Below, one piece after another: positions 7,245-62,040 of a stretch of DNA of 64,000 bases (the stretch's first letter is position 1; each line of letters begins with the position of its first letter). The stretch is from a virus. Lineage: Duplodnaviria; Heunggongvirae; Uroviricota; Caudoviricetes. A program made the position numbers and the translations under genes. The stretch lies in the IMG/VR virus record IMGVR_UViG_3300021387_000529, positions 218,811 through 282,810 of that record. One strand, given 5' to 3'. Under the pieces are notes generated by a model that ran no database searches, was not told where the DNA came from, and saw only the letters and a list, made by a program, of their open reading frames with translations.

Positions 7245-7285
7245 ATAAAAGCCACTTTTTCACAAGTGGCTTTATTTATTTTTGA
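7245..7285 (+). terminator. rho-independent terminator
   Basis: aaaagccactt-tttcac-aagtggctttt hairpin followed by a T-run. Confidence 0.6.
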
Positions 7286-7322
7286 ACTTTTATAAAATTT
7301 TTCATATATTATTAATGTAATG
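7277..7322 (+). promoter_or_regulatory. early-class promoter copy (TTGAAC 7282-7287, 17 bp spacer, TATATT 7305-7310)
   Basis: tttttgaacttttataaaatttttcatatattattaatgtaa matches the consensus. Confidence 0.6.
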
Positions 7323-13464: not shown

Positions 13465-13468
13465 AGAT

Positions 13469-13488
13469 TATTTAGTTATAACTAAATA
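13469..13488. promoter_or_regulatory. perfect 20-bp palindrome TATTTAGTTATAACTAAATA placing an AACTAAAT box before both divergent genes (13464 minus strand, 13495 plus strand)
   Basis: Seen directly in the sequence. It is a bidirectional version of the late-class box. Confidence 0.5.
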
Positions 13489-18018: not shown

Positions 18019-18693
18019 GCACTCTTTCAACACTAATGTATTTTGTGTTGTTATGTCATAATAATAAAAAACAGTTAAATTCTCTTTAGTCTTCTCTTCA
18101 AAATAGACTCTATCAAGTTTATTTTTTTCTAAAGAGAATTTCAAAATTTCTCTTCCTTCTTTTAAAATATCTTTTAAAAATTCATGATTACTACTTACAC
18201 CATGCTCATAAAAATAAAGGTCTGTTATTTGGTTTTTTAGATTAAACGAACAATAATTCAAATAAAATATTTTTCCGTTCAAACCAAAGACAAGCTCATT
18301 TTTAATGTTGCTACTTAATATTTCAACCAGTTCTTTTAATGAACTAATGTAAAAATTCTTTATTTTATATATTTGTCTTCTGTTAAAGAAATCTTCACTG
18401 ATAGACGGATTTATGATTTCATAATATTCTTTTAATTTTCCATCTTTTATTTTTTCTGCTCCAAAATAACTGTCACCTCTGTCATAAAAATATGCATATT
18501 CTTTTGCATCTTCAATTGACGGAATTTTACCATTTATGTAGTCCTCATAAGGAACTTTTATCTCAATCTCAGTGATAGTCTTTTTGGTGCATTTAGACTT
18601 CGCATTTTTTAGTCCTAATTTTCTGCGAAGTCTATTTGCTTTTCTATTTGCTCTTTTAATTTCTCGTTTAATTCTTCTTGGTAAAGTTTCCAT
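17986..18693 (-). CDS. hypothetical protein with an Arg/Lys-rich N-terminus (nucleic-acid-binding-like); start uncertain (the track ORF extends to 18747)
   Basis: The internal ATG at 18693 (METLPRRIKREIKRANRK...) overlaps the SbcC stop by 26 nt. No Mre11/SbcD phosphoesterase motifs are present. Confidence 0.45.
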   Translation of the reverse strand: METLPRRIKREIKRANRKANRLRRKLGLKNAKSKCTKKTITEIEIKVPYEDYINGKIPSIEDAKEYAYFYDRGDSYFGAEKIKDGKLKEYYEIINPSISEDFFNRRQIYKIKNFYISSLKELVEILSSNIKNELVFGLNGKIFYLNYCSFNLKNQITDLYFYEHGVSSNHEFLKDILKEGREILKFSLEKNKLDRVYFEEKTKENLTVFYYYDITTQNTLVLKECLLQRLFRNKG

Positions 18694-20719
18694 TTTTTGC
18701 CTCAAAAATATAAATATCGTCATAATTCTCTTCCAAATAACTTCCAAGAGCTTTTTTATGAGATATTAAAAACAGTTGATGGAACTGATGAAGATTTAGT
18801 AAAACTGAAAAAAGTTTAATGGAGTCATTATCGCTTGAGGCTTTATCGATTTCATCTCCAACAAAAAAGTCTATTTTGTAATATTTTGCCAAAATAGTCT
18901 TAAAAGCTGTTGTCAAAACTGCACGTTCAAATCCAGATGACATTCGTGTATCAAGCCATCTATTCTTATTTTCATCAACAACCGTATTGTCTTTTGTATA
19001 CAGCAAATCACAGCCTTTTTTAGAAGTCTTTACAAGGACATCATATTTTGGGAAAATCATATGAACGAAGGCATTTAGATCATTTTTGATTGTATCACAA
19101 AAAACTTTAGTTCGATACTGTGGCAACAACTTATTCAAAACTTCCCAAGCTTCATCATAAACAGATGCCATTATATTCACTTCTGTAAGTTCAGCTTCAT
19201 TCTTTCCCAAAGCTTCATCTATGGCTTTAATTTTATTTCTCTTCTCTTCATTTTGTCTCATGATAAATTGATTTTTATCATTTGCGCGCTCATATTCTTT
19301 TATGTCAGCAAGAATTTTATTATTCTCATTGACTATGCCAGAAACATCAACTTTCTTAATAGAAGAAACTTTATCTTGAAGAGTCTTCTGCTCAACCTCT
19401 AATTTTGAAATTAAGTCTTTCAAGTCTGCAAGTCTTTTTCTGACTAAAGGCTCTTCTGCTAATGAATAACTAATGCCTTTTTTAACTTCCTCAGACTCTA
19501 CAATCATATTCTCATAATTTCTTTTCATATGAGTATATTCTGTGTGAGCTGCTGTCAATTCAGCACTTGTGCTCTGAGCGTTTGTGTTTGCTGTCCTATA
19601 ATAGTCCACCATTTTATCAGCATCTAAACATTTTTCTTTAAGTTCTGAAATCTCTTTCTCAAAATGAGCGACAACATTGTCTGTGCTTTGGCCACAAACT
19701 GGGCACTTTCCATCTCTACATTTTTCTTCTCTCTCTTCAAAAGATTTCAACTCAAATCTGAGGTTGTTTCGTGTGTCAGTCGCTTCGCTTAATTGTTTGT
19801 AAGTCTCTGCAATTGTGTCTTCAATTTTGTTTATGTCTTTGCTTCTTTCAATTGCTTCTGCATCAAGCTCAGCAATTTTTTCCTTAAATTCTTCAATTCG
19901 CTTGTCTTCATCTACAAGTTTATTTTTCAAATTGTCAATGTCACGAAGTTTATTTTCATATGGAGCTACATCGAGTTGGTTTTTATGAAGAGATAATTCG
20001 ACTTCACGGAGCTGAGACATCAATTCATCTTGTTTTTTCTGAGCTTCACTTACTTTAGAAATTTTTTCCAAGTTTTCAGATAGTCTATTATTAAATTTAA
20101 TAATCTGCTCAGCTGTAAAAGGCATTGCAATAGCTTGCTCAAAATGAGACAATTCAGACTTCAAAGCATTTTTAGACGCAGTGTCAATACGCAATTCTTC
20201 GAGCTGTTTTTTTGCCTGTTGCAATTTTTCAGTAATTATCTGCTTTTGTGAGTCATAATTAAAATTAAAAAGATTTTTAATGTATTCAAGACGCGAAGCT
20301 GATGTTTGGTCTACAATATCTTTCGCATTCTGCATTTGGAACATAATTTTTGAATAATATGAAATTCCAAGAGCAGAGAGTTTTTCAGACGCTTTTGTAT
20401 TTTTATATGTTTCGCCTTTGTAGTCTAATTCACATTCATATGGTGTGCCATTCACACGGTTCAATGTTAGGCGTATTTCTGCATCATCCTCATAAATCTT
20501 AAACTTTAAGACAATATTAGCGTTATCACACCCTTGTTTTACATATTCACCATATGTGCCAGAACGTTTTTCATCACTAAAACATATTGATATTGCTTCG
20601 AATACAGCAGATTTTCCAGAAGCTGGTTCTCCATAAAAATAATTTATATTTCCAAAATCAAATGAAGCATTTGTAATGTTCATGAAATTTTTAATTGAAA
20701 GAGACTTTATTCTTAACAT
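18668..20719 (-). CDS. SbcC/Rad50-like SMC-family ATPase (recombination nuclease subunit)
   Basis: N-terminal Walker A (YFYGEPASGKSAV), a long coiled coil with a central CPVCGQ zinc hook, a C-terminal signature (MSSGFERAV), and Walker B plus D-loop (FFVGDEIDKAS). The protein is 683 aa. Confidence 0.85.
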   Translation of the reverse strand: MLRIKSLSIKNFMNITNASFDFGNINYFYGEPASGKSAVFEAISICFSDEKRSGTYGEYVKQGCDNANIVLKFKIYEDDAEIRLTLNRVNGTPYECELDYKGETYKNTKASEKLSALGISYYSKIMFQMQNAKDIVDQTSASRLEYIKNLFNFNYDSQKQIITEKLQQAKKQLEELRIDTASKNALKSELSHFEQAIAMPFTAEQIIKFNNRLSENLEKISKVSEAQKKQDELMSQLREVELSLHKNQLDVAPYENKLRDIDNLKNKLVDEDKRIEEFKEKIAELDAEAIERSKDINKIEDTIAETYKQLSEATDTRNNLRFELKSFEEREEKCRDGKCPVCGQSTDNVVAHFEKEISELKEKCLDADKMVDYYRTANTNAQSTSAELTAAHTEYTHMKRNYENMIVESEEVKKGISYSLAEEPLVRKRLADLKDLISKLEVEQKTLQDKVSSIKKVDVSGIVNENNKILADIKEYERANDKNQFIMRQNEEKRNKIKAIDEALGKNEAELTEVNIMASVYDEAWEVLNKLLPQYRTKVFCDTIKNDLNAFVHMIFPKYDVLVKTSKKGCDLLYTKDNTVVDENKNRWLDTRMSSGFERAVLTTAFKTILAKYYKIDFFVGDEIDKASSDNDSIKLFSVLLNLHQFHQLFLISHKKALGSYLEENYDDIYIFEAKNGNFTKKN

Positions 20720-20767: not shown

Positions 20768-20843
20768 CTATATTATAATTTAAAATCTATAGGGAAGCAG
20801 AAAGTGCTTACCCTTTTAAAGATTATTTAAACAGGTAACTAAA
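20768..20843. repeat. conserved intergenic element, copy A (76 nt): ctatattataatttaaaatcTATAGGGAAGCAg-aaag-TGCTTACCCttttaaagattatttaaacaggtaactaaa
   Basis: Identical to copy B (51403..51479) except for the hairpin loop (gaaag versus gggatt). The stem is GGGAAGCA/TGCTTACCC. It lies in the divergent gap between the SbcC start and gene 20892. Confidence 0.8.
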
Positions 20844-20891: not shown

Positions 20892-21230
20892 ATGAAAGAA
20901 AACACAGCACATGTTGGAATTGATAGCGAAATTGACTACAAGATTGGAGACCATATTTTTACAGCAGACTTTGTAGGTGGCGGTGAAAATGAAAGTAAAT
21001 TCGATGTCAAAGAATATGAAATCAAAGATATGAAAAAAATTCTTGGAAAACCAAATTACTATGAAATTGTTGATATTCGTTTTCCAAAATCAGTTATTAA
21101 GTCCGACTTGCAGACTGGCTTCTTCAAATCAGCAAAAGAAGCTGCAAAGGCATTCTTAGACTCAATTGACTTCATTCATGATGAATGCCATAAAGTTTAC
21201 GAAAAAGAATACGGAAAGGATAATGCTTAA
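20892..21230 (+). CDS. hypothetical protein (112 aa)
   Basis: ORF with Shine-Dalgarno site aaggaaggataaaATG, directly downstream of conserved element A. Confidence 0.55.
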   Translation: MKENTAHVGIDSEIDYKIGDHIFTADFVGGGENESKFDVKEYEIKDMKKILGKPNYYEIVDIRFPKSVIKSDLQTGFFKSAKEAAKAFLDSIDFIHDECHKVYEKEYGKDNA

Positions 21231-27138: not shown

Positions 27139-27157
27139 ATATAATATATTAATATAA

Positions 27158-27200
27158 ATTTTTTGAATTTAATTAATCTTTTTCATATATTATATTTGTA
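27158..27200 (+). promoter_or_regulatory. early-class promoter copy (TTGAAT 27163-27168, 17 bp spacer, TATATT 27186-27191)
   Basis: ttttgaatttaattaatctttttcatatattatatttgtaa. The leader is only about 12 nt before ATG 27214. Confidence 0.6.
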
Positions 27201-27213
27201 AGAGGAGACCACA

Positions 27214-27814: not shown

Positions 27815-28160
27815 AGAGCACGGTTACTCTTTCCCACTTCATGATTTCGTGAAGATGATTAACATTGCAATTTTTGGTGACAAAATTGCAACTAAAATTC
27901 ATCGTAAGTTCTCAAGTCATCATGCTCATATGAGACACATTAGAGTTTATTATGATGATGGAATGCATAAATGGTCTAAGGTTCAGCCTGCTGGAAGATT
28001 TATCAAAAATCAGGTAGAAGCAGCGGTTGACTGGGAAAGCGCCCGCTTCACTAAACCTGAAAAACCTTTGAATGCTTACCAAACTTGGAAGAAATATTAC
28101 TCAGACATAGACATGGAAGAAACCTTGAAGAAGTTGGGTTTTTGGGAAGAAAATTTTTGA
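27750..28160 (+). CDS. hypothetical protein (136 aa, GTG start)
   Basis: GTG preceded by the Shine-Dalgarno site aaaagaggaaca. Confidence 0.5.
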   Translation: MNRIDEIKKTIKHRAVVQKIAKEHGYSFPLHDFVKMINIAIFGDKIATKIHRKFSSHHAHMRHIRVYYDDGMHKWSKVQPAGRFIKNQVEAAVDWESARFTKPEKPLNAYQTWKKYYSDIDMEETLKKLGFWEENF

Positions 28161-28196
28161 ACAAAGACTAAACTTTTCATATATTATATCCGTAAA
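28152..28196 (+). promoter_or_regulatory. early-class promoter copy (TTGAAC 28157-28162, 17 bp spacer, TATATT 28180-28185)
   Basis: aaatttttgaacaaagactaaacttttcatatattatatccgtaa. Confidence 0.6.
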
Positions 28197-31181: not shown

Positions 31182-32825
31182 GTGTTAATTTTGTCAGCAA
31201 TTATTGGTGGAGGAATTCTCGCAATCCTCATTCTTATCATGTTTTTTGTTGGATATTTCAAAGCTCCAACAAATAAATGTTTTGTTATTTCGGGTTTGCG
31301 CAAGAATGCACGAAAAGTTATTGGAAAGTCTGGCTTCAGGATTCCGTTCCTCGAGCGTAAGGATGAGCTTACTCTTGAGTTGATTTCAGTTGATGTAAAG
31401 ACACAGGAAGCTGTTCCAACTGCAGAATGTATCAATATCTCAGTTGATGCTGTAGCGAACATCAAGATTGGTACTTCTGATGAAATGTTGCAGAAAGCAT
31501 CACAGAACTTCTTAAACCAGGATGTACGATATATCAACAGCGTTGCTCGCGAAGTTCTTGAAGGTAACTTGCGTGAAATTGTTGGTACCATGACTTTGAA
31601 AGCCATGATGAATGACCGCAAAACTTTTGCTGAGAAGGTTCAGGAAAATGCAGTTCCAGACCTTAACAAAATGGGTCTTGAGATTGTATCATTCAATGTA
31701 CAGAACTTCAGCGATGAGCAGGGTGTAATCAACAACCTTGGTATCGATAACATCGCAACTATTCAGAAGAACGCATCAATTGCAAAAGCAAATGCTAACA
31801 AAGAAGTTGCTGTTGCAGAAGCAAAAGCTCGTGAAGAGTCAAATGACGCAAAGGTTGCTGCTGATACTGCAATTGCTGAAAAGAACAATGCTCTTGAAGT
31901 TCGTAAAGCCGAACTTGAAGCTGAACGTTTGAAGCAGATTGCAAAAGCTGAAGCTGCAGGTGCAATTGAGAAAGAAACACAGCGTAAGACTGTTGAGGTT
32001 ACAAAACAGGAAGCTGAGATTGCCCGCTTGCAGAAAGAGAATGACTTGAAAGAGCAGGAAATCTCAATCAAGGAAAAAGCACTTGATGCTGAAATCAAGA
32101 AACAGGCCGATGCTGAAAAGTATGCTGCTCAGACTCGTGCTGATGCTGAACTTTATGAACGTACAAAAGCCGCTGAAGCTGAAAAGATTGAGAAAGAGCG
32201 CAATGCTGAAGCAAACCTCATTGCTCTCCAGAAGAAAGCTGAAGCTGATAAATACGAGCAGGAAAAAGCCGCTGAAGCTTTGGTTGCAAGGTCTGAAGCT
32301 GAAAAACAGCAGAAGTTGAATGAAGCTGAAGGTCAGAAAGCTCTTGCTGAAGCTATCCAGGCCAAGGGTGAAGCTGAAGCTGCTGCTGTAAAAGCTAAAC
32401 TCGAAGCTGAAGCTGAAGGTCTTCGTAAGAAAGCACTTGCTGAAGCTGAAGGTTTGAAACAGAAAGGTTTGGCTGAGGCTGAAGCAATCAACAAGAAAGC
32501 TGAAGCTCTCGCAAAGATGAATGAAACTGGTAAAATGGACATGCAGTTGGAAGCACTGAAAGCGCTCTTCAGCCAGTTGCCAGCAATGTATGAAGCAGCT
32601 GCCAAACCTTGGGAGAAAGTTGGAAACATCACAATGTACAGTGGTGGAAAAGATGGTGGTGACAACCTTCTTACAGGCAACATCACTAAGACAATCACTC
32701 AGGTTGGTGCAGGTCTTAAAGACTCGCTTGGTATCGACCTTGGAGACGTTGTTAAGGGCCTTGTTGGTGGAAAGCTTGTTGGTTCAGAAGTTGCGAAAGC
32801 ACTTTCAACAAAAGACAAAGCATAA
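31182..32825 (+). CDS. flotillin-like SPFH/band-7 membrane scaffold protein (FloT/YuaG-type)
   Basis: GTG start after the Shine-Dalgarno site AAGGAGG. The protein has an N-terminal transmembrane helix, an SPFH domain (FVISGLRKNARKVIGKSGF...LEIVSFNVQNF), a ~250-aa Ala/Glu/Lys-rich coiled coil (EA repeats), and a Gly-rich C-terminus. Its architecture and 547-aa length match bacterial flotillin. Confidence 0.8.
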   Translation: MLILSAIIGGGILAILILIMFFVGYFKAPTNKCFVISGLRKNARKVIGKSGFRIPFLERKDELTLELISVDVKTQEAVPTAECINISVDAVANIKIGTSDEMLQKASQNFLNQDVRYINSVAREVLEGNLREIVGTMTLKAMMNDRKTFAEKVQENAVPDLNKMGLEIVSFNVQNFSDEQGVINNLGIDNIATIQKNASIAKANANKEVAVAEAKAREESNDAKVAADTAIAEKNNALEVRKAELEAERLKQIAKAEAAGAIEKETQRKTVEVTKQEAEIARLQKENDLKEQEISIKEKALDAEIKKQADAEKYAAQTRADAELYERTKAAEAEKIEKERNAEANLIALQKKAEADKYEQEKAAEALVARSEAEKQQKLNEAEGQKALAEAIQAKGEAEAAAVKAKLEAEAEGLRKKALAEAEGLKQKGLAEAEAINKKAEALAKMNETGKMDMQLEALKALFSQLPAMYEAAAKPWEKVGNITMYSGGKDGGDNLLTGNITKTITQVGAGLKDSLGIDLGDVVKGLVGGKLVGSEVAKALSTKDKA

Positions 32826-33902: not shown

Positions 33903-34344
33903 AATAAAAGGTGATATTTTCAGCCAGATTGGATATTCAATTGCTTTTGCAGTTGATGCAACTTACAGATGTGATGTCGGTATCTGTAAGCAACTCGATG
34001 ATAAGTTTCGTGTTGAAGCTCTTTTGAAGTCATTGCCTGAAGAGGCAACAAAATGGAAAGGAAAAGGTTACTGTATTGCATTTACTTCAGGAACTCAAGA
34101 CTTATATGCTCTTGTCGTTAAGTCACTTCCACAGAAATATCCAGACTATTCAAACATCAAAGAAGCTCTTATGAGTTTGGCAGCAGATGTTGCACGAAAA
34201 AGCAGCATTCTTACGCCTAAAATTGCTATGCCTAAGATTTGCTGCGGAATTTATGACAGACGAGATTGGGATAAAATTGAAAGTCTTATCATTGATGTTT
34301 TCAAAGGCATTGATTGTGAAATTTTAATTGTTGAAAAAGACTAA
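33889..34344 (+). CDS. hypothetical protein (151 aa); weak macro-domain-like N-terminus, not confirmed
   Basis: ATG at 33889 with Shine-Dalgarno site GGAAGGAGG (the track uses TTG 33868). Confidence 0.5.
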   Translation: MTLNKIKGDIFSQIGYSIAFAVDATYRCDVGICKQLDDKFRVEALLKSLPEEATKWKGKGYCIAFTSGTQDLYALVVKSLPQKYPDYSNIKEALMSLAADVARKSSILTPKIAMPKICCGIYDRRDWDKIESLIIDVFKGIDCEILIVEKD

Positions 34345-34345
34345 A

Positions 34346-34392
34346 ATTTTTTGAACTAGTCACATAATTTTCATATATTATATCCGTAACAA
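34346..34392 (+). promoter_or_regulatory. early-class promoter copy (TTGAAC 34351-34356, 17 bp spacer, TATATT 34374-34379)
   Basis: tttttgaactagtcacataattttcatatattatatccgtaa. Confidence 0.6.
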
Positions 34393-41918: not shown

Positions 41919-42245
41919 TTAAATAAACTTATCTAATATTACAAAGTCTTTTTTCTCAAAAAAATTTTTAAGAGGAACAAACTTTTTAATTTTAGATTTT
42001 TGAAATACCATAAAAATTGCAATCAGCTTTTGTTGTGTATTTATAGATAAATTTTTTAATAAAGTATAGTTATAAAATTTATTTTTTTCTAAAACACTAC
42101 ACAAGTATAAGAAAACTTTCTCTAATAGCTCATCATAATACCCATGAAAAGCATTACATTTAATGATATTTTGCAGAGCTAAATTTATATAATTTAACTC
42201 TGCATTGTCAGACTCTAACTCAAAATTAGTTTCCAGTTCCGTCAT
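41919..42245 (-). CDS. doubtful ORF in a very AT-rich gap (108 aa from the ATG at 42245)
   Basis: Open frame overlapping the giant gene stop by 20 nt with no Shine-Dalgarno site. The region has roughly 20% G+C and may be non-coding or regulatory. Confidence 0.25.
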   Translation of the reverse strand: MTELETNFELESDNAELNYINLALQNIIKCNAFHGYYDELLEKVFLYLCSVLEKNKFYNYTLLKNLSINTQQKLIAIFMVFQKSKIKKFVPLKNFFEKKDFVILDKFI

Positions 42246-45200
42246 CTGGTGGTGCGGCTTCTTCTGAGCGTTCTCCAATTGTGGCATCAATCTCTCCTTT
42301 TCTATATGCTTCTCCTAAAGAAGCAAGGCTAGTTTTAATTATTGGTTCAGCTAAACCTACTTCTGGGACCCAGTTACCATTAGGCAGATTTGCATATAAC
42401 GTTTCATCAATAAAATATTGAAGACTCATATTTTCAAGTAAGAATTCTTTCCATGCTGCAAAGTCTAATACTTTTTCAGTTATTGATGAACTTAGCTCAA
42501 CATTCATGTCTTCTCGTCCTTCTGTAGTAATAGTAAAATAGCCTGGAGCAGCAATTTCTTCACTTAAATACGGTTTAAATATTCTTGGCTTTTCAGGCCA
42601 GACTCTAATATTTGGAATAACAAAATAGTTTCTCTTGTATTCATTCAATTTATATTTGTGCGTTCCATTATCCTCATCAAGAACCATACCATATAATTCA
42701 AGATTATATCTTACTGGGTCATTATTTGTTTTTTCTACATCAACAACAATTACAGTGAAAGATGTTATCTCATATTCTTGTCCTTTAAATTTAAGCTTAA
42801 TCGCTCTTGAAGATGTGTCAACAATATTATAACGTGTAAATGATTTTAGCTCGATATTATTTGGAGACTTTGCAACATCAAGTTTAAGTGCTGATGGAGT
42901 AAGCGTATGCTGTAATTCTATGAGCTGTCTAATATTTTCAGAAGAAATCTCGATTTTTGAGTCAGGAATTGGCAATATCTGACCATTTATATATGAGTTA
43001 TCTCTGAACTTAAACTCATTAACAAATGTCGTTTCTTTGAAAATTTGTGGTCTAACATTTTGTGTATTGAACAAATATTCATTAAATTCAGTTTCAAATC
43101 TATCCGCTGCGCATCTTGTAGACTTTTTCAAAATAGGTGAACGAACAAATGCGTCTTTAACTGAGACCAAATTTCTTCTTAAAGGCTTAATATAATACTC
43201 TTTATAAGTATGGTTAAAATCACCTTCTGAATGAACAACAGACTTTTCTGAAGTAATATTATGGTCATGTGTAAAAGGCGTAAACTCTGCTGTTGCAGTG
43301 TTATCCGCATGTGTTTCTTTCCAATTTTCAAAACCAGAATTACCAATGCTTACAGTATGGTTAAATGTTGTCGGTGTAGTTGTAATATTTGATGTGCCTA
43401 AAAGAACATTTGCTGTTGTAGTTTTAAGCTCAATTTTTTGTTTGCTTAGTGTAACTACTGGTTTTGCAGACTCATTATTAGTTAAAGAAGGAGCAGATTT
43501 TGTGCCTTCAGATACTAAGTCGCTTCCTTTTACAGTTATTTTAACAGTCTTATTATTTGCTGTTGGTGAGAATGTCGCTGATATTGTTGGGGCGCTACCA
43601 GCAAGCTTAGCAGCAGTCCAAAGTTTGTTAATTGCGTCTTGAAGATTATTAAGTGTAATTGTTCCTCCAGAAGATACATCAACAGTTGTTGAATACTCTT
43701 TATCAGAAGTGCTAATTCCTTCAAGGAAATTATTAGAATTAAGTCCTAAACCGCTTTTGATGAATTTCTGTTCGCCAACTGTAATACCTGTAACGTATTC
43801 TGCTTTATCACCTTCCAATTTAACAGTCTTAATTACGTCTTCTTTATTTTGAGTAAATCCATACTGGTTTATTGTATGCGCAGACACATTTACAGTTAAA
43901 GACTTTTTATCATCTTTATTGTTATTATTTTCAGTCTTGTCTTCTATATAATGAACATACTGCTTACTTGATTTATCTTCATTGCAACTATCTACGGTAA
44001 CGTGCAATTGTTCTGTCTCACGAGTAGACATTAAAATAGAGTCTTTACTAATTGACGTTTCAACCTCTTGACTTGTATCTCCACCTTGTGAATTTACATC
44101 TTCTGGAATATTATCAGAAATTAAAACGTCATGTTTATATGAAGCAGCTGTAGAGTCGATGTCTTCTGTTAAGTTGCCATCTGTACCGTCACTAAAGAAT
44201 TCTTTTTCAAAGAAATAACCTTCAGTAAAACCACCTTTAGTTGGGTCTAACCAATCAATATCATTATTAAGATATTGGCTTACATATGAGAACTCATCGC
44301 TGAATTCAAATCCTGAAAGAGGCTTTCCAACGTTTTCTGGTTCAAGAACTTCACCAATCTGTGTCACATCTTTGAGTACAGTAGCTATATCTGCATATTT
44401 ATTAATTCTTTCAAAGAGTGTTTTATCAGGTATATGTGAGTCTCTTATATTTTTACTAAATACATTTTTTTCAATAAATGCTCGAACGTCCAAAGACTCT
44501 ATCTTTGCATCATCACCAAAAATAGACATATCATAGTCTTCATGGTCTGAACAAGAAATTATGTCATAATTCCAGCCTCTTTCGAGTGTATCGTCATCTA
44601 CAATTTCAATATGAGTTGTGTCTGTATCAAGCAAATTATATTTTTCAGATGAACTATAAACTTTTTTATCAATATAATCATTGAAATCACAACTATGTTC
44701 TTTTCCATTTCTGTCTACCCAAACAAGGTCATTATTCGCAATAGGTCTTTGCAAATATGGGAATGCTTGTTCATATTCAGATGAAAGTCCTGTAATTCCA
44801 TTTAAGAAACCAAAGAAAAATTTTCTTTTTTCTAAGTCTTTGCCACATGATGCATTGATCTTATTTAAGAAAAGGTTTACACTTGTATGATAAACTGGTC
44901 TTGCTAAACGATATGACAAACTTGACTCATATACACCATCAGCTTTTGCTTCTACTGTATAATGTTTTTTATCATGATAATCTGACCATGATGGGAAAAA
45001 GTTTTTAATGAATTGCTCATTAATTTTATCAGGATGACCAATAAGCTCAATAATTTTTCTAAATTCACTCGAGACATTTGTTACTTCTTCATATCCTTCA
45101 AAAAGAGAATCTACCCATTCTGCATCAATATCAGCTGAGTCAAAGTCACGCTCACGTGTAAGTTTTATTGAAGGGATTAAGTCTATTGAGTCTTTTTCAG

Positions 45201-48200
45201 GATTTTGTCCTGAAAAATGACAATCAGACGTTTGTCCCTTAGTTGGTAAATCAACTGGATGTTTAAGACTTTCTAAGTAAGTATTTATGTCAACATCCAA
45301 TCCGTCTTTAAACATTGGAACTGCAATGTCTGAATAGTCACCATTTGGTATGTCATAATAGATGTAACCTGTTTTTATTCCTTCAATAAAGTCATTATAC
45401 ACTGCAATTTCTTTTTCATAATCACTTTGTGTATATTTTTCTACTTTTTTCTCACCATTTTCGTAAGTTGTCTTGTCTCCTTGTAGTACATTAGTGTACA
45501 CTCCACCTTCGATGTTACCCAAAATTAAGAAGACATAAAGAGCATAAAATTGGATTGGCTCTGTGAGTTCAACAGAGCAAATTTTTCTTGAATATGCAGA
45601 TTTATTCCATCTTTTATATAATTTTGTTACAGTTTCATCTGACCACTCACCAATAATACTTTGATTTGAGAACTTAAATCCAGGGTCTTTTTGTCCAATT
45701 TTTAGTCCATAACCTGTAACAAATCTATCATTGTCAAATTCGAATGCTGAGTAAACTGAGTCAGTGTTTGAGCTATTTGAAAAAACCTGTATATTATCCA
45801 AACTTTTGAATGTTGGTATATTTCCAAAAGTCATATTTATAAATGACGCGATATGCGTTCTTTTCGGATTAAATGTTCCATCGTATCTAAATTGTGCTTT
45901 CATGAAAGACAATTTTATGATAATGTCATAAATTATTCCTTCAAGAGATTGTGGAGCAAAGGTTGCTTTCTGACCTTCATAAGGTGAGCCATCAGAAAAG
46001 AACTTATCAGGCTCATCAGCCATTACAACATATTTTTCACCATTTCCATTATCTACGACATAGTCGCCTGTTGCGTCACTAACACCAAAAATTGTATTAC
46101 CAAAGAAATTTTCTTCAAGTGTTACTCCAGTTCTTTCTTCCCATTTAGGGTCAATATTTATTGGCCATGAGAAAGGTGTTCCTTTATAAATTTCACCTTC
46201 AAAAGGTAAGTCAGTATTATAACCTTTACAGTTTTTTGAAAAAACAATATTTTTTGCTAAAGTAAAACTATATGAGTCATCAGCTCTTGTATAGTTTACA
46301 GGTCTATCGTAACGTGAGTTCATTGTGATGCGTGAACATGCTTTTATAATCTCTTGACATTTATAGTTTATCCATAATTGAGCAAGATGTGATATTCCAC
46401 CAGACTCTTTTAAAATATCTTTTAATTTTAGATTTCCTTTTGAAAAGTCATCATATGCATCTTCAATTGTTTTAAAATTACGTGTTGAAGAAGAAGCACG
46501 TTTTTTGCCATAGTCACTGTAGTTATCAACTAAAAGATTCAATAATAATGACTTAAAACCATTGTTTTCAGCAACAACGTCAAGGCTATCCAAATAGCTA
46601 TCAGTCTTATAGCTAATAAAGCCATTTTCATTCAAAAATTTCAAAAATCTTGAAATTCCTAAATCATCAACATAGTATGATAATTCTGTTTCGACATTTG
46701 CTTCTTTTGAGAATGCGCCAAAATAGTCATATCCGAATAAAAGTCTTTCAATCTTCAAAAGTCTTTCTTCTGTTTCTGTTGCTGCTCTTGACAAAAGTCC
46801 TAAAAATGACTGATAATCAATTCTTGAACGGAGAGACCAACCATCGTTTATTGCTTGCTTTATATCTGCATCAGACTTATCAACTGAAAGCTTATTTGTA
46901 GACTCATTAATTTTACCATTAAAAGTATCATCAAAAATTTTAAAAGAATATCCATTCTCCAAAAAGTCTGAAAGTCTATCTTTAATAATTGAAATTTTTT
47001 CTTTCCCAGATGTTGACTCATTAAAAATAGATGGATATAATACCTTAAAAATTCTTAATGCGCTCTTATCATATTCAACACCATGCTCATTTGTTGTGTC
47101 TTCTGCTGTGAATGACGCTTGGAATTGTGCATTTAATTTTGCAACTGGAACTTCACCAGACAAGTCATATTCCCATGAGATTTTCTTTTCATTCTCTCCA
47201 TCACCGATAATATAATCTTGTGTGAATATTTCTGTGTCAGAGTCTTTTCCACTTATAAGTCTATAAACTACGCCAGCTTTATTTTCACCATCTGTGTGTT
47301 TGAACTCAATACTACTTGAGAGCTCTCTTGTAAATCCAGATGAAGCATTTCCATCATCTTCATTTATATCAACTTTTCCACCGATATAGATTTTATCGCC
47401 TTGAATTACAAGGTTATTTGCTGAGTCAACCAATGGAGTCCATGGATTGAGTGCAGGATATTGATTCAAATAGATTGAGTTATACTGTGTTGGTCTACGA
47501 CGAACTGTTACATATAGCTGAATAGTTTTTTGAGCTTTAGTTCCTATTGGCCAAGTTACACCAAGACAATCTTCATTATTTACATTTTCAGGCTGAGTAA
47601 TCATATAAAGATATGTATTCTTTGACTCAGCTACAACTTGCCATTCAAATCCAGCAAATTTTCCATTTGGAAGCTGCCAAAAACCTGGTGAAATTATTTG
47701 TCCACTTTCTTTTTCCTGAACAATAATGTCATATGCTTCAATGTTCTGTCCATTATTGTCCATATATGCGCCAAGCTGTACAAGATTTGTAATATTTATT
47801 CTGAGGTCAGATGACTCTACTGTTCCGCCTCTAGTTCCAACTTTTTTGTAAGGAATATCCAATTGATAACACTGTTCTGGCCAAACATATGCTTGAGACT
47901 CAGGTGAGCCTTCTTTTGAATACTTTATTTGAGCAGCACATGTTTTACCGTCATCGATTGTATAATAAAGGTCTCTAAATTTCCAATATGTTGGTTTTGT
48001 TTTTGAAAGAATACCAGTTTCAGTATTCTCACCATAGAGTTCCCAGTTGCCTTCATTTACACGAGTGAATGGACCATTTTTATTTTTAGAGAATACAAAA
48101 ATATCTTTTGCATAACAATATGTAAGAAGTGGCGTCCAATCAATAGACTCACCATAAACAGTATGTACAGACTTATCGATTAAACAATATCCAGCATCTG

Positions 48201-49296
48201 TCAAGTTTTCACCAAAAACAGGCTTGATTGTTCCAATCATTTCTGCAGACGCAATAGACTTTGCATAGCGACAATCAACAAGAAATTTGTTTGTTCCGAA
48301 TCCAACACCTACTTTAAACTCGATTGAGTCAGAAGATTCTTCAAAGTCAATGTCTCCATCTTTAATGCAAGCTGTTTTACCAAATGAGCTTGTGCTAAAT
48401 CCAAAATTTCCGCTTACAATTCCGAGTCTTGTGATTGTGATTGTTTTTCCGAGATAGTCTTCTAATGATAATTTTCCATTTTTTGATGGCGCTACAAAAA
48501 CACCAGCAATGTCATTCTTGTCATTTGCTTTTAAAATTGTGTCATTTAAGACAAGAATACCTTTTCCATTTACAATTTTTACAGGAATAATTTTATCATA
48601 GTCAGATGTATTATCTTCTAATGAGATTTCTTGTGTATCTGTAATATCAACTGAAATTTGTGTTGTGTCTACAACACCGCGTACATCACCTGAGAGCTGA
48701 ATTTCAATTAAAATTTTTTGATATTTTTTTAATACTTCTTTTGATGGAAGTGGAGCATCAGCTATACGTCCAATACAGATGATTGTTCCACCATCATAAG
48801 TGGCCTCTGCGAGGTCTATAGTAAGCTCGCCTTTATTTTTATTTGAAACATAGACTGGCTTACCAATGTCTTCATATGTCCATTTAAAAGCATTTCCATC
48901 ATTTGGAGGAAGATAATAGTCTTCTTTACCATAATTTGCAATATCATACTCAATCTGGCCATGTGATTGAACATGTACTTTTTTGTTATCGCCTGCTATT
49001 CCAGGCTCAAGAAGAATACCAACTGAAAATTGATTTACTGATGGGTCAACAACTACAATTGCGCTATCGCCTTGGCCTGAAGCTTCAACTGCAAGTTGAC
49101 TTTCATATCCAACTGCGACTGGTTGTCCTTTTTTAAGTTTGGTTGAACTACCTACCAAATATGTTGAAAGTGGGTTCAACCAATTAGAAGCTGCATCATT
49201 TTTTGAATTATATCTTAATTGGCCATTTTTTCCATTAATCCAGATGTTACCTTCTTTGTAAAGAAGCTCTTGTGGTAAATCAATATTTGCATTCAT
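42226..49296 (-). CDS. giant virion protein (2356 aa; tail or baseplate-associated, putative)
   Basis: Single 7.07-kb ORF with the box ttcatAACTAATTatttaatt-ATG and no Shine-Dalgarno site. No enzymatic motif was recognised. Confidence 0.7.
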   Translation of the reverse strand: MNANIDLPQELLYKEGNIWINGKNGQLRYNSKNDAASNWLNPLSTYLVGSSTKLKKGQPVAVGYESQLAVEASGQGDSAIVVVDPSVNQFSVGILLEPGIAGDNKKVHVQSHGQIEYDIANYGKEDYYLPPNDGNAFKWTYEDIGKPVYVSNKNKGELTIDLAEATYDGGTIICIGRIADAPLPSKEVLKKYQKILIEIQLSGDVRGVVDTTQISVDITDTQEISLEDNTSDYDKIIPVKIVNGKGILVLNDTILKANDKNDIAGVFVAPSKNGKLSLEDYLGKTITITRLGIVSGNFGFSTSSFGKTACIKDGDIDFEESSDSIEFKVGVGFGTNKFLVDCRYAKSIASAEMIGTIKPVFGENLTDAGYCLIDKSVHTVYGESIDWTPLLTYCYAKDIFVFSKNKNGPFTRVNEGNWELYGENTETGILSKTKPTYWKFRDLYYTIDDGKTCAAQIKYSKEGSPESQAYVWPEQCYQLDIPYKKVGTRGGTVESSDLRINITNLVQLGAYMDNNGQNIEAYDIIVQEKESGQIISPGFWQLPNGKFAGFEWQVVAESKNTYLYMITQPENVNNEDCLGVTWPIGTKAQKTIQLYVTVRRRPTQYNSIYLNQYPALNPWTPLVDSANNLVIQGDKIYIGGKVDINEDDGNASSGFTRELSSSIEFKHTDGENKAGVVYRLISGKDSDTEIFTQDYIIGDGENEKKISWEYDLSGEVPVAKLNAQFQASFTAEDTTNEHGVEYDKSALRIFKVLYPSIFNESTSGKEKISIIKDRLSDFLENGYSFKIFDDTFNGKINESTNKLSVDKSDADIKQAINDGWSLRSRIDYQSFLGLLSRAATETEERLLKIERLLFGYDYFGAFSKEANVETELSYYVDDLGISRFLKFLNENGFISYKTDSYLDSLDVVAENNGFKSLLLNLLVDNYSDYGKKRASSSTRNFKTIEDAYDDFSKGNLKLKDILKESGGISHLAQLWINYKCQEIIKACSRITMNSRYDRPVNYTRADDSYSFTLAKNIVFSKNCKGYNTDLPFEGEIYKGTPFSWPINIDPKWEERTGVTLEENFFGNTIFGVSDATGDYVVDNGNGEKYVVMADEPDKFFSDGSPYEGQKATFAPQSLEGIIYDIIIKLSFMKAQFRYDGTFNPKRTHIASFINMTFGNIPTFKSLDNIQVFSNSSNTDSVYSAFEFDNDRFVTGYGLKIGQKDPGFKFSNQSIIGEWSDETVTKLYKRWNKSAYSRKICSVELTEPIQFYALYVFLILGNIEGGVYTNVLQGDKTTYENGEKKVEKYTQSDYEKEIAVYNDFIEGIKTGYIYYDIPNGDYSDIAVPMFKDGLDVDINTYLESLKHPVDLPTKGQTSDCHFSGQNPEKDSIDLIPSIKLTRERDFDSADIDAEWVDSLFEGYEEVTNVSSEFRKIIELIGHPDKINEQFIKNFFPSWSDYHDKKHYTVEAKADGVYESSLSYRLARPVYHTSVNLFLNKINASCGKDLEKRKFFFGFLNGITGLSSEYEQAFPYLQRPIANNDLVWVDRNGKEHSCDFNDYIDKKVYSSSEKYNLLDTDTTHIEIVDDDTLERGWNYDIISCSDHEDYDMSIFGDDAKIESLDVRAFIEKNVFSKNIRDSHIPDKTLFERINKYADIATVLKDVTQIGEVLEPENVGKPLSGFEFSDEFSYVSQYLNNDIDWLDPTKGGFTEGYFFEKEFFSDGTDGNLTEDIDSTAASYKHDVLISDNIPEDVNSQGGDTSQEVETSISKDSILMSTRETEQLHVTVDSCNEDKSSKQYVHYIEDKTENNNNKDDKKSLTVNVSAHTINQYGFTQNKEDVIKTVKLEGDKAEYVTGITVGEQKFIKSGLGLNSNNFLEGISTSDKEYSTTVDVSSGGTITLNNLQDAINKLWTAAKLAGSAPTISATFSPTANNKTVKITVKGSDLVSEGTKSAPSLTNNESAKPVVTLSKQKIELKTTTANVLLGTSNITTTPTTFNHTVSIGNSGFENWKETHADNTATAEFTPFTHDHNITSEKSVVHSEGDFNHTYKEYYIKPLRRNLVSVKDAFVRSPILKKSTRCAADRFETEFNEYLFNTQNVRPQIFKETTFVNEFKFRDNSYINGQILPIPDSKIEISSENIRQLIELQHTLTPSALKLDVAKSPNNIELKSFTRYNIVDTSSRAIKLKFKGQEYEITSFTVIVVDVEKTNNDPVRYNLELYGMVLDEDNGTHKYKLNEYKRNYFVIPNIRVWPEKPRIFKPYLSEEIAAPGYFTITTEGREDMNVELSSSITEKVLDFAAWKEFLLENMSLQYFIDETLYANLPNGNWVPEVGLAEPIIKTSLASLGEAYRKGEIDATIGERSEEAAPPDDGTGN

Positions 49297-49333: not shown

Positions 49334-49714
49334 TTAGCCTTGTTTTTCTTCAATAACAGAAAATTTTAATGGAACAACTGCAGCTTTGCAAATGTCATCT
49401 TTTAGCATTTTATTGTCATCGATAACATCAGCTGGTATAAGCTTTTTTGCAATCAATTGATTTATAAACTCTGGAAAAAACGCCTGAGCCTGCGCAAATG
49501 TTGGAAAAATCTCATTTGAATAAAATGGAAATACAAACTTCTGATTTTCCAATTCTTCTTTCAATAGTTTTGGTGTCTTTTTATGAGCACGCTCATCATA
49601 ATGCTCAAGCTCATTTGCAATTGGCGTGCCATAAAAAATAGCACACTGAAAAAATCCTTCCTGTTTCGGCATTTTGCTCATAATTCTTTCCTTATTGATA
49701 ATATCACTCGACAT
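49334..49714 (-). CDS. hypothetical protein (126 aa) coupled to the chaperonin gene
   Basis: Overlaps the GroEL-like stop by 11 nt. It has no GroES-like mobile-loop signature. Confidence 0.55.
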   Translation of the reverse strand: MSSDIINKERIMSKMPKQEGFFQCAIFYGTPIANELEHYDERAHKKTPKLLKEELENQKFVFPFYSNEIFPTFAQAQAFFPEFINQLIAKKLIPADVIDDNKMLKDDICKAAVVPLKFSVIEEKQG

Positions 49715-51350
49715 TAAACATTCTTCCTGGGTCTACAATTTCATCAAGTGGCTCAATTGACATATTCTTTACGTCTGAAACAACAATAGTGTCAATCGAC
49801 ATAAATTGCTCAGCAATGTTTGAAGAATATATAATTGAGTTCTTTACAACAGTGTATGGGTCAATAATTCCTTTTTCAAGGATGCGCTCAACAGTTGCTG
49901 TTCGTGCATTGAAACCAACATCAGGGTCGTTCAAAATCTGTGGAACAACTGCTACAATTTCAGAGCCAGTTGACTCAATCAATTTCAAAGCTGGAGCACG
50001 AATTGCAGCCATAAATCTCTCATATGCAGTTTTCTGTGGGATAGTCAAGTCTTTTGTATCTTCTGGAGTTGTGCTATATGAAATACGAAGAAGTGAAGTT
50101 CCAGCACCAATCAAAACACCTTCAGCCAAAGAATTACGAACAGCGTTGATTGCGTCTTCATATCTGTCTTTCTTTTCTGAAAGCTCAACTGATGTTAAAG
50201 CTCCAACATAGATTGTTGCAATACCACCTGTAAGGCGAGCGATACGTTCTTTAATTGCATCAATTTGAAATGGCGACTTACCATGAATACAGTCGCCTTC
50301 TTCAGTCAAGCTCTTCAAAAGCTCAATGTGTTTATCAAATTCTTCTTTATTTGTATTTGGGTCAGTGATGATTGTTTCTTTTGCTGTTACATTGATTGCG
50401 CCGCAAGTTCCACAATCTTTAAAAGAATTGAACTCATCAATTTCTTTATCAATACCAATAATTTTTCCAGATGTGATAACAGCAATATCCTGAATATTTG
50501 CCTGAATAGACTCACGTGAAATACCAGGCGCACGAATAAAAACAACATTCTGTGTTACAAGTTTTTTGATATACATTGCAAGAACATCATCACCATATTC
50601 TGGAGCAACAACAAGAATATTTTTTCCGAGAAGTGGCTGCAAAATAAGTGCCAATTTTTCAGAGTCTTCAACAATATCATTAAACAAAATGACTTTTACA
50701 TCATTCAAAATACACTGGTCATTTGCAGAATTGACACATTTTGATGAAATAAAACCTTTATCAAGTTGAAGTCCCTGTTTGATGTCAAGCACAGTTTTTC
50801 CTGTTCGTGACATAGAGTCTGCCATTGAAACAAGACCACCATCACCAATTGAAGTGAATGCTTCAACAACCATATTAGCGATTTCTTCATCACCATTTGC
50901 AGAAACAAGAGCAATATTTCTCATCATTTCTTCTGAGTCAATTGTTTTTTTGTAAGCTTCAAGTTTTTTAAGAACATCTTCACGAGCTTTTTTGTAAGCT
51001 ACACGAAGGTCATTGATGTCAATTCCCTGCATAAGAAGTGAATTAGCTTTATCACACAATGCAGCTGTCAAAATTGTAGTAGATGTTGAGCCATCACCAG
51101 AATGCATATTTGCGCGGTCAGATGCTTCTTTCAAAAGTTTAAGTCCTGTGTCCATACACTCATCCGAAAATTGAAGAATTTTTAAGACTGAAATACCATC
51201 TTTTGTTGATATTGAGTTTGTTCCTTTTGTATAAGAAACAGTACGTCCTCTTGGTCCAAATGTTGATGCTACTGCTCTAGCAGCAAGTTGAATTCCTATA
51301 TTTATCTGAGCTCTTGCTCTTTGTCCAAATATTATACTTTTACCTGCCAT
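49704..51350 (-). CDS. groEL: GroEL-type (Cpn60) chaperonin
   Basis: GPRGRTVSY...TKDGISV...GDGSTSTT...LVVAPEY...GGIATIYVGALTSVELSEKKDRYEDAINAVRNSLAEGVLIGAGTSLL aligns block by block with GroEL ([66 protein letters not shown]). The protein is 548 aa and lacks the C-terminal GGM repeats. Confidence 0.85.
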   Translation of the reverse strand: MAGKSIIFGQRARAQINIGIQLAARAVASTFGPRGRTVSYTKGTNSISTKDGISVLKILQFSDECMDTGLKLLKEASDRANMHSGDGSTSTTILTAALCDKANSLLMQGIDINDLRVAYKKAREDVLKKLEAYKKTIDSEEMMRNIALVSANGDEEIANMVVEAFTSIGDGGLVSMADSMSRTGKTVLDIKQGLQLDKGFISSKCVNSANDQCILNDVKVILFNDIVEDSEKLALILQPLLGKNILVVAPEYGDDVLAMYIKKLVTQNVVFIRAPGISRESIQANIQDIAVITSGKIIGIDKEIDEFNSFKDCGTCGAINVTAKETIITDPNTNKEEFDKHIELLKSLTEEGDCIHGKSPFQIDAIKERIARLTGGIATIYVGALTSVELSEKKDRYEDAINAVRNSLAEGVLIGAGTSLLRISYSTTPEDTKDLTIPQKTAYERFMAAIRAPALKLIESTGSEIVAVVPQILNDPDVGFNARTATVERILEKGIIDPYTVVKNSIIYSSNIAEQFMSIDTIVVSDVKNMSIEPLDEIVDPGRMFNVE

Positions 51351-51402
51351 ATCTTATAATATTAATAGTGCAATGATGAAATTTCTAGAAATTCCCCTAT
51401 TA

Positions 51403-51479
51403 CTATATTATAATTTAAAATCTATAGGGAAGCAGGGATTTGCTTACCCTTTTAAAGATTATTTAAACAGGTAACTAAA
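51403..51479. repeat. conserved intergenic element, copy B (77 nt)
   Basis: Same sequence as copy A apart from the hairpin loop. It lies in the divergent gap between the GroEL start and gene 51505. Confidence 0.8.
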
Positions 51480-51504
51480 AATTCTCATTGTTAATATATT
51501 ATAC

Positions 51505-51813
51505 ATGAGAATAAATAAGACAGAAATTGATGCAATTGTAAATAAAGATGACACATCAATGATTGACATTGTTAAAAATGGTGAAGTCGTACGCAGAACA
51601 AAAGTTTTAAGCTGGAAGAAACAGGAAATTTATGACGCAAAATATAATGGAGCTGCATTGATAGTTCAAATGAAAACTCCACTCACTGGTACAGTTTATG
51701 CTTGGTATACAGCAAAAGACTCTGGACTATGCATTTCACCTATGACACCAGTTTCTACTTTATCTATAACAGAAGCAAAAAAGAGAGAAATTGTTAAAAA
51801 TTTTTTGAATTAG
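51505..51813 (+). CDS. hypothetical protein (102 aa)
   Basis: The ATG directly follows TAATATATTATAC, so the transcript may be leaderless. Confidence 0.5.
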   Translation: MRINKTEIDAIVNKDDTSMIDIVKNGEVVRRTKVLSWKKQEIYDAKYNGAALIVQMKTPLTGTVYAWYTAKDSGLCISPMTPVSTLSITEAKKREIVKNFLN

Positions 51814-51845
51814 TTATGCACTCTTCATATATTATATACGTAACG
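51800..51845 (+). promoter_or_regulatory. early-class promoter copy (TTGAAT 51805-51810, 17 bp spacer, TATATT 51828-51833), overlapping the 3' end of gene 51505..51813
   Basis: ttttttgaattagttatgcactcttcatatattatatacgtaa. Confidence 0.6.
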
Positions 51846-61971: not shown

Positions 61972-62001
61972 AATACCGCTAAAAAGCGGTATTTTTTTTT
62001 G
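61972..62001 (+). terminator. rho-independent terminator
   Basis: accgct-aaaaa-gcggt followed by attttttttt. Confidence 0.7.
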
Positions 62002-62040
62002 AACTTATACTTTGTTTTTCATATATTATATTCGTAAATC
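61994..62040 (+). promoter_or_regulatory. early-class promoter copy (TTGAAC 61999-62004, 17 bp spacer, TATATT 62022-62027)
   Basis: tttttttgaacttatactttgtttttcatatattatattcgtaa. Confidence 0.6.

Follow-up and report, generated by a model that had tools for sequence, protein, structure and literature searches.

The closest described concept for the element considered here is the PeSL cassette of T4-like phages. PeSLs are conserved composite motifs of ~100 bp, made of a promoter and a stem-loop, that mediate gene shuffling (PMC2839356, PMC4122927); they are located between co-directional ORFan genes and combine near-consensus sigma-70 promoters with effective terminator stems (PMC2839356). Our element comes from a stretch of 64,000 nucleotides (nt) of an uncultured tailed phage (Caudoviricetes; IMG/VR record IMGVR_UViG_3300021387_000529, positions 218,811 to 282,810), which is referred to below, at its full length, as the window, and one of its copies lies next to a gene for a GroEL-like chaperonin. 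The element consists of a left block, a variable centre and a 31-bp palindrome, ~80-95 bp of non-coding DNA in total. Judged from the sequence comparisons presented below, it is a real, strongly conserved and previously undescribed repeat that matches no known phage or bacterial genome. With a probability of roughly 0.4, we propose that it is a lineage-specific operator/promoter cassette that is bound as duplex DNA by a putative regulator.

Similarly to PeSLs, the element is an intergenic motif of ~100 bp repeated several times per genome in a large lytic phage, it joins a promoter-like box to a stem-loop that varies between copies, and insertions and deletions occur right beside it. As regards the near-consensus promoter of PeSLs, the element retains TATAAT and has a varying -35 sequence (TAGAAA, AAGAAA, TAAAAA, TTTAAA and others). 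However, the scan detects no terminator stem, the predicted energies of the stem-loop being -2.3 to -9.2 kcal/mol and the stem itself being near-absent in 4 of 16 variants; and eight of the ten gene contexts are divergent, with the element fronting replication genes, rather than co-directional. Conversely, PeSLs lack the 31-bp palindrome and show no sequence similarity to the element. Among the four features of PeSLs that were tested, the repeated ~100 bp motif is the only one that the element clearly has.

Dyad-symmetric sites are also familiar from other phages, in particular the site of phi29 p4 between A2c/A2b and A3, the sites of Mu Mor/C, and lambda OR. The element shares with these a palindromic site between back-to-back promoters, an occurrence at multiple places in the genome, and a -10 box without a clear -35; it differs in being longer (two blocks), in its hypervariable centre and variable spacing to the -10 box, and in that no cognate protein was found. 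With lambda nut and HK022 put, which are RNA sites of antitermination, the element has in common the presence of at least two near-identical copies that differ in a hairpin loop and, if its TATAAT is active, the location just downstream of a promoter, but there is no similarity to boxA/boxB and no Rfam match, the copies have the same orientation, and two contexts lack a downstream gene. The middle promoters of T4, with a MotA box (TGCTTtA) and a -10 box, are comparable as a class signal that precedes replication genes, and the 3' arm of the central hairpin in the window reads TGCTTA. Other variants have TACTTA, TAGTTA or TAGTTT in this position, with no -10 box at 11-13 bp, and the likeness to the MotA box is judged to be due to chance.

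Anatomy and conservation of the element

A profile built from 16 variants of the element identified exactly two copies in the 64-kb window (nhmmer); the next, unrelated match has E = 4. The two copies and the parts of copy B are the following.

51403-51479, plus strand: copy B of the element (nhmmer E 2.6e-20), identical to copy A except for the loop
20768-20843, plus strand: copy A of the element (E 1.3e-19), with TATAAT at 20774-20779, the hairpin at 20792-20813 and the palindrome at 20808-20838
51444-51474, plus strand: 31-bp palindrome TTACC-CT-TTTAAA GATTA TTTAAA-CA-GGTAA, that is, TTACCCTTTTAAA-GATTA-TTTAAACAGGTAA (RNAalifold consensus)
51386-51414, plus strand: sigma-70-like promoter match in the left block, TAGAAA, 17 nt, TATAAT (51409-51414), scoring 10/12 in the consensus scan
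51415-51429, plus strand: remainder of the left conserved block, TTAAAATCTATAGGG, invariant in most variants
51427-51449, plus strand: central hairpin with the arms GGG-AAGCA and TGCTT-a-CCC and the loop GGGATT, the part that varies within the family

The first-pass annotation, made without database searches, described 51403-51479 as a second copy of 20768-20843 with the loop variant gggatt, and the match indeed holds base for base: all positions outside the hairpin loop are equal, and the loop is GGGATT in copy B and GAAAG in copy A, copy B having one base more. The similarity extends leftward beyond these limits, to AGAAATTC (51387 and 20752); rightward, a non-conserved gap is followed by a TTAATATATTA box common to both. 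The two copies have the same orientation and each is located in a divergent intergenic region. No further degenerate copies were found in the window or in the 166 loci that were fetched for comparison (designated by L numbers below), and a partial look-alike at 13465-13486 (AGATTATTTA..AACTAAA) is not supported as an extra copy by nhmmer.

The main feature of the element, and its best conserved part, is the dyad-symmetric palindrome, which had been missed in the first-pass annotation. It consists of 13-bp arms and a 5-bp centre, and the 31-mer occurs nowhere else in the window. In the alignment, 87.5% of the palindrome cells are paired, compared with 31-67% in slid registers, and 10 of the 13 arm pairs are invariant. 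In L069, L077 and L090, the palindrome is a perfect 13-bp inverted repeat, with the two mismatched positions paired, and in L053 and L069 TTACC/GGTAA is replaced by TTTCC/GGAAA in both arms together. The centre of the palindrome changes (GATTA, GTATA, GAATAC) and the arms stay constant. The palindrome matches itself on the reverse strand (nhmmer E 6.5e-4) and, as single-stranded DNA, has a predicted energy of -4.7 kcal/mol (z -2.9). The palindrome and the 3' arm of the central hairpin overlap, and because TTACCC is common to both hairpins, they exclude each other as single strands.

By contrast, the central hairpin, which the first-pass annotation took to be the conserved part, proves to be the least conserved one: across 16 different centres it is near-absent in four, and it is the flanks that are conserved. 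The centre comprises 11-18 nt between GGG and CCC, with a 5' half that is hypervariable in both sequence and length. The two window hairpins have an 8-bp stem with one bulged A (-9.1 and -9.2 kcal/mol as RNA), at one end of a range that reaches -2.3 kcal/mol across the 16 variants. The arms vary but stay complementary (AAGCA/TGCTT, AAGT/ACTT, AACT/AGTT, AAC/GTT), and in L021, L052, L077 and L157 hardly more than GGG:CCC remains (-2.3 to -3.3 kcal/mol). In L021, the flanks are near-identical to those of copy A and the centre is different, which suggests exchange between copies. The fold of the window hairpins is modest, with RNA z-scores of -1.1 to -1.4; as single-stranded DNA, the centre reaches -6.3 to -6.8 kcal/mol and the whole element -8.3 to -8.8 kcal/mol.

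In the left block, the register of TATAAT is fixed in 20 of 23 distinct sequences, the others having TATTAT (two) or TGTTAT (one). The -35 position is weak, variable and A-rich (TAGAAA in copy B; AAGAAA, TAAAAA, TTTAAA and others elsewhere), and promoter-like matches around the element are not more frequent than in shuffled sequences. In one context TTAAAATCTATAGGG is replaced by TTAAAATCATTAGGGG, and in one TCTATAGGG, within the left block, is replaced by TCATTAGGGG. A lower stem formed by the left and right blocks was rejected upon inspection by eye, given that the changes in L001, L053, L069 and L088 are uncompensated. The left block was also considered as a stand-alone unit, but the 39 exact matches to ATAATTTAAAATCTATAG in IMG/VR are either full elements or chance matches that lack the right block, so that the two blocks always co-occur.

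The members of the family were collected by pattern scans of IMG/VR and JGI metagenomes that demanded TCTATAGGG and CCCTTTTAAA, followed by removal of chance matches. The resulting set includes ~24 distinct sequences with 16 different centres in 10 gene contexts, from rumen viral and metagenome contigs. Conserved independently of the search pattern are TATAATTTAAAA, T(G/A)(C/G)TTA and G(AT/TA)TATTTAAA(C/A)(A/G)GG(T/A)AA. In IMG/VR, a relaxed pattern of the palindrome gave 12 matches, all 12 of which are true elements. Several contigs carry more than one copy (L008, L011 and L012 on a contig of 97 kb; L003 and L161 on one of 47 kb; L007 and L160 on one of 39.5 kb), and the density, with two copies in the 64-kb window, three in 97 kb and two each in 47 kb and 39.5 kb, is about one per 20-30 kb. 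Both types of the right end, GGTAAC and GGTAAG, are present on one contig (L003 with L161, and L007 with L160), and accordingly this difference was rejected as a private signature of each genome.

The right block has no match in 185,579 bacterial and archaeal genomes, and a bacterial or prophage origin of the element was dropped on this account. A blastn search of known phages with the 91-nt element yielded only chance matches of 30 nt. Nine loci encoding GroEL proteins with 29-49% identity, several of them on contigs of 240-330 kb, have no such element upstream, which indicates that the family is restricted to a single clade. Beyond this clade, the closest GroEL-like homologues are encoded on the IMG/VR contigs L107, L108, L111 and L112 (239-329 kb; 35-49% identity).

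Within the clade, conservation extends to both junctions. The first-pass annotation had reasoned that conservation of copy A in related genomes without that of copy B would speak against a shared element; this is not the case. The junction of the GroEL and ligase genes bears the element in L073 (98% ligase identity) and also in L053 and L088 (57-62% identity for the ligase and ~80% for GroEL), and the junction of copy A bears it in L015, L021 and L025. In another context (the seventh; L011, L052, L074, L069), the element is retained beside genes whose products have diverged to 45-65% identity among relatives. At orthologous junctions it persists where the intergenic DNA around it can no longer be aligned. 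The constraint on this non-coding DNA is strong.

Gene contexts and local promoter boxes

Of the ten contexts, eight are divergent junctions and the remaining two co-directional; convergent junctions do not occur, and the element is always upstream of gene starts. In every context, a gene start is found 65-130 nt away on one side; on the other side the distance is usually 38-90 nt. Divergent junctions are rare in the window (~6 among ~75), which, by informal comparison, suggests a tie of the element to gene starts far beyond chance. The orientation of the element is undefinable at divergent junctions. In both co-directional cases, it is the left block that faces the gene downstream, and the palindrome is overlapped by the last codons of the upstream gene.

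The genes next to the element encode SbcC-like, helicase, GroEL-like, NAD ligase, clamp-loader-like, type IB topoisomerase, AAA ATPase and RNA-ligase-like proteins. Those that can be named mostly belong to replication and nucleotide metabolism, and the neighbours of different contexts are unrelated. A search across the contexts for paralogous neighbours, or for a regulator gene always beside the element, found none. The genes and promoter boxes around the two window copies are listed below (aa, amino acids).

18668-20719, minus strand: SbcC-like gene, on the left of copy A (1.5e-18 in the Pfam and PHROGs searches)
20892-21230, plus strand: gene for a 112-aa protein, on the right of copy A
49704-51350, minus strand: GroEL-like gene, on the left of copy B (Pfam Cpn60_TCP1 6.6e-49; PHROGs 2e-100)
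51353-51365, minus strand: TTAATATTATAAG box, 2 nt upstream of the ATG (51350-51348) of the GroEL-like gene, read from the sequence; its equivalent is conserved in L053, L073 and L088
51491-51504, plus strand: TTAATATATTATAC box abutting the ATG of the 102-aa gene; aligns with the -10 box of the repeated promoter of the ligase gene in L053 and L088
51505-51813, plus strand: gene for a 102-aa protein, on the right of copy B, followed by the gene for the NAD-dependent ligase
51786-51844, plus strand: copy of a separate promoter family (repeat family D1) before the NAD ligase gene, TTGAAT, 17 nt, TATATT; outside the element

Several statements of the first-pass annotation on the surroundings of copy B hold. 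Pfam and PHROGs agree that the neighbour is a GroEL-like chaperonin; its start codon (51348-51350) is 52 nt left of the element, close to the ~50 nt given for the minus strand; and downstream the element does run into a sequence directly followed by ATG, as TTAATATATTATAC (51491-51504) abuts the ATG at 51505. The TTAATATATTATAC box is likely to be the -10 region of the own promoter of the 102-aa gene, and the TTAATATTATAAG box is likely to be that of the GroEL-like gene. A box of the TTAATATATTATAC type flanks the element in most contexts. More generally, the flanking genes have promoter boxes of their own between the element and the start codon, either TTAATAT(A/T)(A/T)T without a clear -35 or TTGAAC-17-TATATT, which places the element upstream of the promoters rather than in place of them. 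With respect to a -10/-35 pattern shared by the SbcC-like and GroEL-like genes, a comparison suggested in the first-pass annotation, the two upstream regions have the TTAATAT(A/T)(A/T)T box in common and no clear -35.

Changes in gene content are seen next to the element. The gene content shifts exactly at the right edge: the 102-aa gene is present in the window and in L073 and absent from L053 and L088, where the ligase gene directly follows; similarly, an extra open reading frame (ORF) of 111 codons lies beside the element in L086 and not in L012. Three side observations concern individual contexts. Immediately to the left of copy B (51374-51389 in the window) there is a local palindrome, AAATTTCTAGAAATT, which is found only at the GroEL junction, in the window and in L073; it bears a loose resemblance to a motif of the CodY-box type. 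In L001, the element and the promoter box of the clamp-loader-like gene have between them a G+C-rich inverted repeat, CCATGGCA-g-TGCCATGG (4316-4332, arms of 8 bp), which is seen in that context only. In L161 (IMGVR_UViG_3300031867_000124), the 300-aa ORF left of the element encodes a eukaryotic-type topoisomerase I (Pfam Topoisom_I_N 2.9e-24, Topoisom_I 1.1e-10), which is unusual for a phage.

The first-pass annotation also held that gene 51505 is probably expressed from a leaderless or near-leaderless transcript. Translation probably does begin at the ATG at 51505, given that all three substitutions relative to L073 in the first 25 codons are synonymous and that an in-frame stop is found at 51472-51474, with no canonical start codon from there to 51505. 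The gene lacks a Shine-Dalgarno sequence, and upstream of it is a TAATAT hexamer that ends 7 nt ahead of the start codon. A leaderless transcript is thus plausible, but the transcript could equally begin within the element and have a longer AU-rich leader. The same arrangement, TAATAT, 6-8 nt and ATG without a Shine-Dalgarno sequence, is found in the GroEL-like gene (51350), in the gene ending at 27138 (minus strand), and in the GroEL and methyltransferase-like genes of L053 and L077, so that leaderless mRNAs are plausible for several genes. In gene 13495 (plus strand), a ATATATTGT box abuts the ATG and there is neither a TAATAT hexamer nor a Shine-Dalgarno sequence. Other window genes have clear ribosome-binding sites of the GGAG type.

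The D1 family is represented by eight copies of TTTTTTGAAC, 14 variable nt and TTTTCATATATTATATNCGTAA, which correspond to TTGAAC, 17 nt and TATATT with unusually long conservation.

405-463, 7263-7321, 27144-27202, 28138-28196, 34332-34390, 51786-51844 and 61980-62038, plus strand, and ~384-416, minus strand: copies of D1

Each copy is located 20-35 nt before a Shine-Dalgarno sequence and ATG, and two are back to back at 384-463. D1 looks like an ordinary sigma-70-type promoter, which suggests that the phage uses the host polymerase at least in part. The early promoter of the AR9 virion polymerase is AAATATATATTAT-(6N)-G (PMC5312081). Its core is the same as the D1 core, ATATATTAT, whereas the spacing to the start differs and TTGAAC at 17 nt points to a host sigma factor; the similarity is a lead only.

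A probable regulatory cassette and its alternatives

The element is very probably a regulatory cassette of the kind of which many large phages have their own versions. In the specific form that we put at about 0.4, it would be a multi-copy cassette upstream of the promoters of DNA replication and nucleotide metabolism operons in an uncultured, AT-rich rumen phage. A dimeric DNA-binding regulator, encoded by the phage or possibly by the host, would bind the palindrome and perhaps the left block as well. Once bound, the regulator would jointly activate or silence the promoters that flank the element, on one side or on both, as a single temporal class, by analogy with operators and activator sites at divergent promoters of other phages. 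This interpretation is favoured by the dyad symmetry combined with a variable centre, by the location upstream of promoters and by the functionally coherent neighbours. Furthermore, the single-strand structures are weak and dispensable, which fits recognition of duplex DNA better than a stable RNA fold. From these features, we infer protein binding and control of transcription.

Several observations weigh against such an operator. Among the features of palindromic operators, dyad symmetry conserved across copies is present and a fixed distance to the promoter is not. Copies A and B differ by ~4 nt in the spacing from the palindrome to the flanking -10 boxes, and in other contexts the difference is larger; relative to the right-hand genes, the palindrome centre is at about -45 to -52 in copies A and B and further away in L003; and its distance to the left-block hexamer is 53-60 nt, set by the variable centre, whose length differs by up to 7 nt. 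Such unfixed spacing counts against a rigid geometry of activator and polymerase. The symmetric change in the palindrome arms is of just one kind, seen in two possibly related sequences, and it would be equally expected from base pairing in RNA or single-stranded DNA, so that it cannot single out protein binding. The invariance of TCTATAGGG and CCCTTTTAAA is partly built in by the scans that demanded them. Finally, no helix-turn-helix or other DNA-binding domain was detected in the scanned ORFs of the window and the neighbours, most of which lack any family match.

An RNA element, which we consider doubtful despite some support, would make TATAAT a real promoter, with a plus-strand transcript that starts just before TCTATAGGG. 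For the right-hand operon, this RNA would be a leader, an attenuator or a signal for processing, similar in role to nut or put sites, which directly follow early promoters; its first 60 nt would fold in two exclusive ways, into the central hairpin followed by UUUU or, via TTACCC, into the palindrome hairpin. The fixation of TATAAT in 20 of 23 sequences, at the very position where conservation begins, and the sigma-70 score of 10/12 in copy B are in line with this possibility, and so are the compensating changes in the stem, with several G-T pairs that are valid on the plus strand only, the better folding of the plus strand in 11 of 16 variants, the TTTT directly after the hairpin and the use of TTACCC by both hairpins. 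A plus-strand gene is found within 38-90 nt in 8 of 10 contexts. Nevertheless, in the contexts of the L012 and L074/L069 types, the right side has only the 3' end of an opposite gene and yet the whole element is kept, and the hairpin is near-absent in L021, L052, L077 and L157. The fold z-scores are just -1.1 to -1.4, the scan detects no terminator-like site, the -35 is weak and promoter-like matches do not exceed those in shuffled sequences. Rfam 15 gave no match over the whole window at gathering thresholds and, at E up to 10 around copy B, only two chance matches to small nucleolar RNAs (E 4.9 and 8.9). Assignment to a known RNA family was rejected for the lack of an Rfam match. An intrinsic terminator was rejected as well: the stem is followed by just 4 T, no such site passes the scan, and no context is convergent or limited to 3' ends.

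Quite unlikely, in our estimate, is a switch in which the middle segment, the left arm of the palindrome (CCCTTTTAAA), would pair alternatively with the left block (TTTAAAA..GGG), which closes the variable hairpin, or with the right arm (TTTAAA..GGTAA). This would take place in an RNA leader or attenuator of replication-gene operons or, as extruded DNA, at a structure-dependent promoter or one of several origins. If true, this alternative pairing would add a new type to the regulatory RNA or DNA structures of phages; if not, the element would be an ordinary lineage-specific regulatory repeat.

The element could also function as a PeSL-like recombination cassette, in which ~80-95 bp of homology together with a promoter would let adjacent genes be inserted, deleted or swapped. 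This is compatible with regulation, and the presence or absence of the 102-aa gene at the right edge, the extra ORF in L086, and the centre of L021, different from that of copy A on near-identical flanks as exchange would give, all agree with it. It is nonetheless improbable. Homology alone would not preserve the palindrome at 45-65% protein divergence; moreover, 8 of 10 contexts are divergent, and both the -35 and the stem are weak.

Origins of replication in T4 consist of a promoter and an unwinding element, and those of herpesviruses are palindromic and located between divergent genes. A replication origin or structural DNA site, with the AT-rich palindrome beside an easily melted TATAAT/TTTAAAA as one of several initiation sites, is a similarly improbable explanation of the element. 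The AT-rich 31-bp palindrome with an adjacent promoter-like box, the presence of several copies per genome and the setting among helicase, ligase, SbcC, UvsX-like, clamp loader and topoisomerase genes would suit an origin. However, the copy number (two in 64 kb, three in 97 kb) is high for origins, neither iterons nor repeated initiator boxes are found nearby, GC-skew tracks gene orientation with nothing specific at the copies, and the cruciform energy is small.

Recognition by a phage RNA polymerase is very improbable. Such a promoter is suggested by the similarity of CTATAGGG to a T7-type start region, with CTATAGGGA matching positions -5 to +4 of the T7 promoter, and by a conserved AT-rich 20-mer that ends in a G-run, with variable sequence at once after it; in addition, the N4 virion polymerase uses hairpin promoters. 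Yet one context has CATTAGGGG instead of CTATAGGG, the hairpin stem and loop are not conserved, unlike those of N4 promoters, no RNA polymerase is detected in the window, where a 2356-aa ORF is matchless in PDB sequences and known phages, and the common promoter family of this phage, TTGAAC-17-TATATT, is of the host sigma-70 type. The minus strand was also considered as a mimic of a Cas12a-type CRISPR repeat, to which TTTAAATAAT..TAGAT bears a likeness; one scan of the genome collection turned up no array or identical repeat, and the idea was dropped.

The phage lineage

The phage is AT-rich (29-40% G+C). When 3.3 kb around copy B were compared with 50,697 phage records using blastn, no match was obtained, and most of the window proteins belong to no Pfam or PHROG family. 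The recognisable genes encode thymidine kinase, thymidylate synthase, dCMP deaminase, a UvsX-like recombinase, an SbcC-like protein, a helicase, the NAD ligase and the GroEL-like chaperonin. A scan for tRNA and tmRNA genes found none. The jumbo-sized contigs that encode GroEL-like homologues, together with how many separate contigs with the element come from the same samples, hint at a genome well above 100 kb.

Searches of the window for an RNA polymerase with Pfam and PHROGs, and for the catalytic motifs in its large ORFs, found none. The ORF of 2356 aa (42226-49296, minus strand) has no match in Pfam, PHROGs, PDB sequences or, using tblastn, the 50,697 phage records. It was rejected as a virion RNA polymerase, having neither catalytic motifs nor matches, and looks like a large virion or fibre protein. 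The ORF at 31182-32825, whose product has an SPFH/Band 7 domain and weakly matches flotillin, contains GCTGAAGCT-rich direct repeats (31860-32510, plus strand; families D2, D3, D5 and D6) that probably encode a repetitive coiled-coil segment.

As a specific marker, the element also makes it possible to link metagenome fragments that belong to this lineage. The 31-bp palindrome provides a concrete bait for finding the regulator. In a lineage without a cultured relative, whose proteins mostly belong to no family, a common signal of this kind would be a rare handle on the timing of gene expression.

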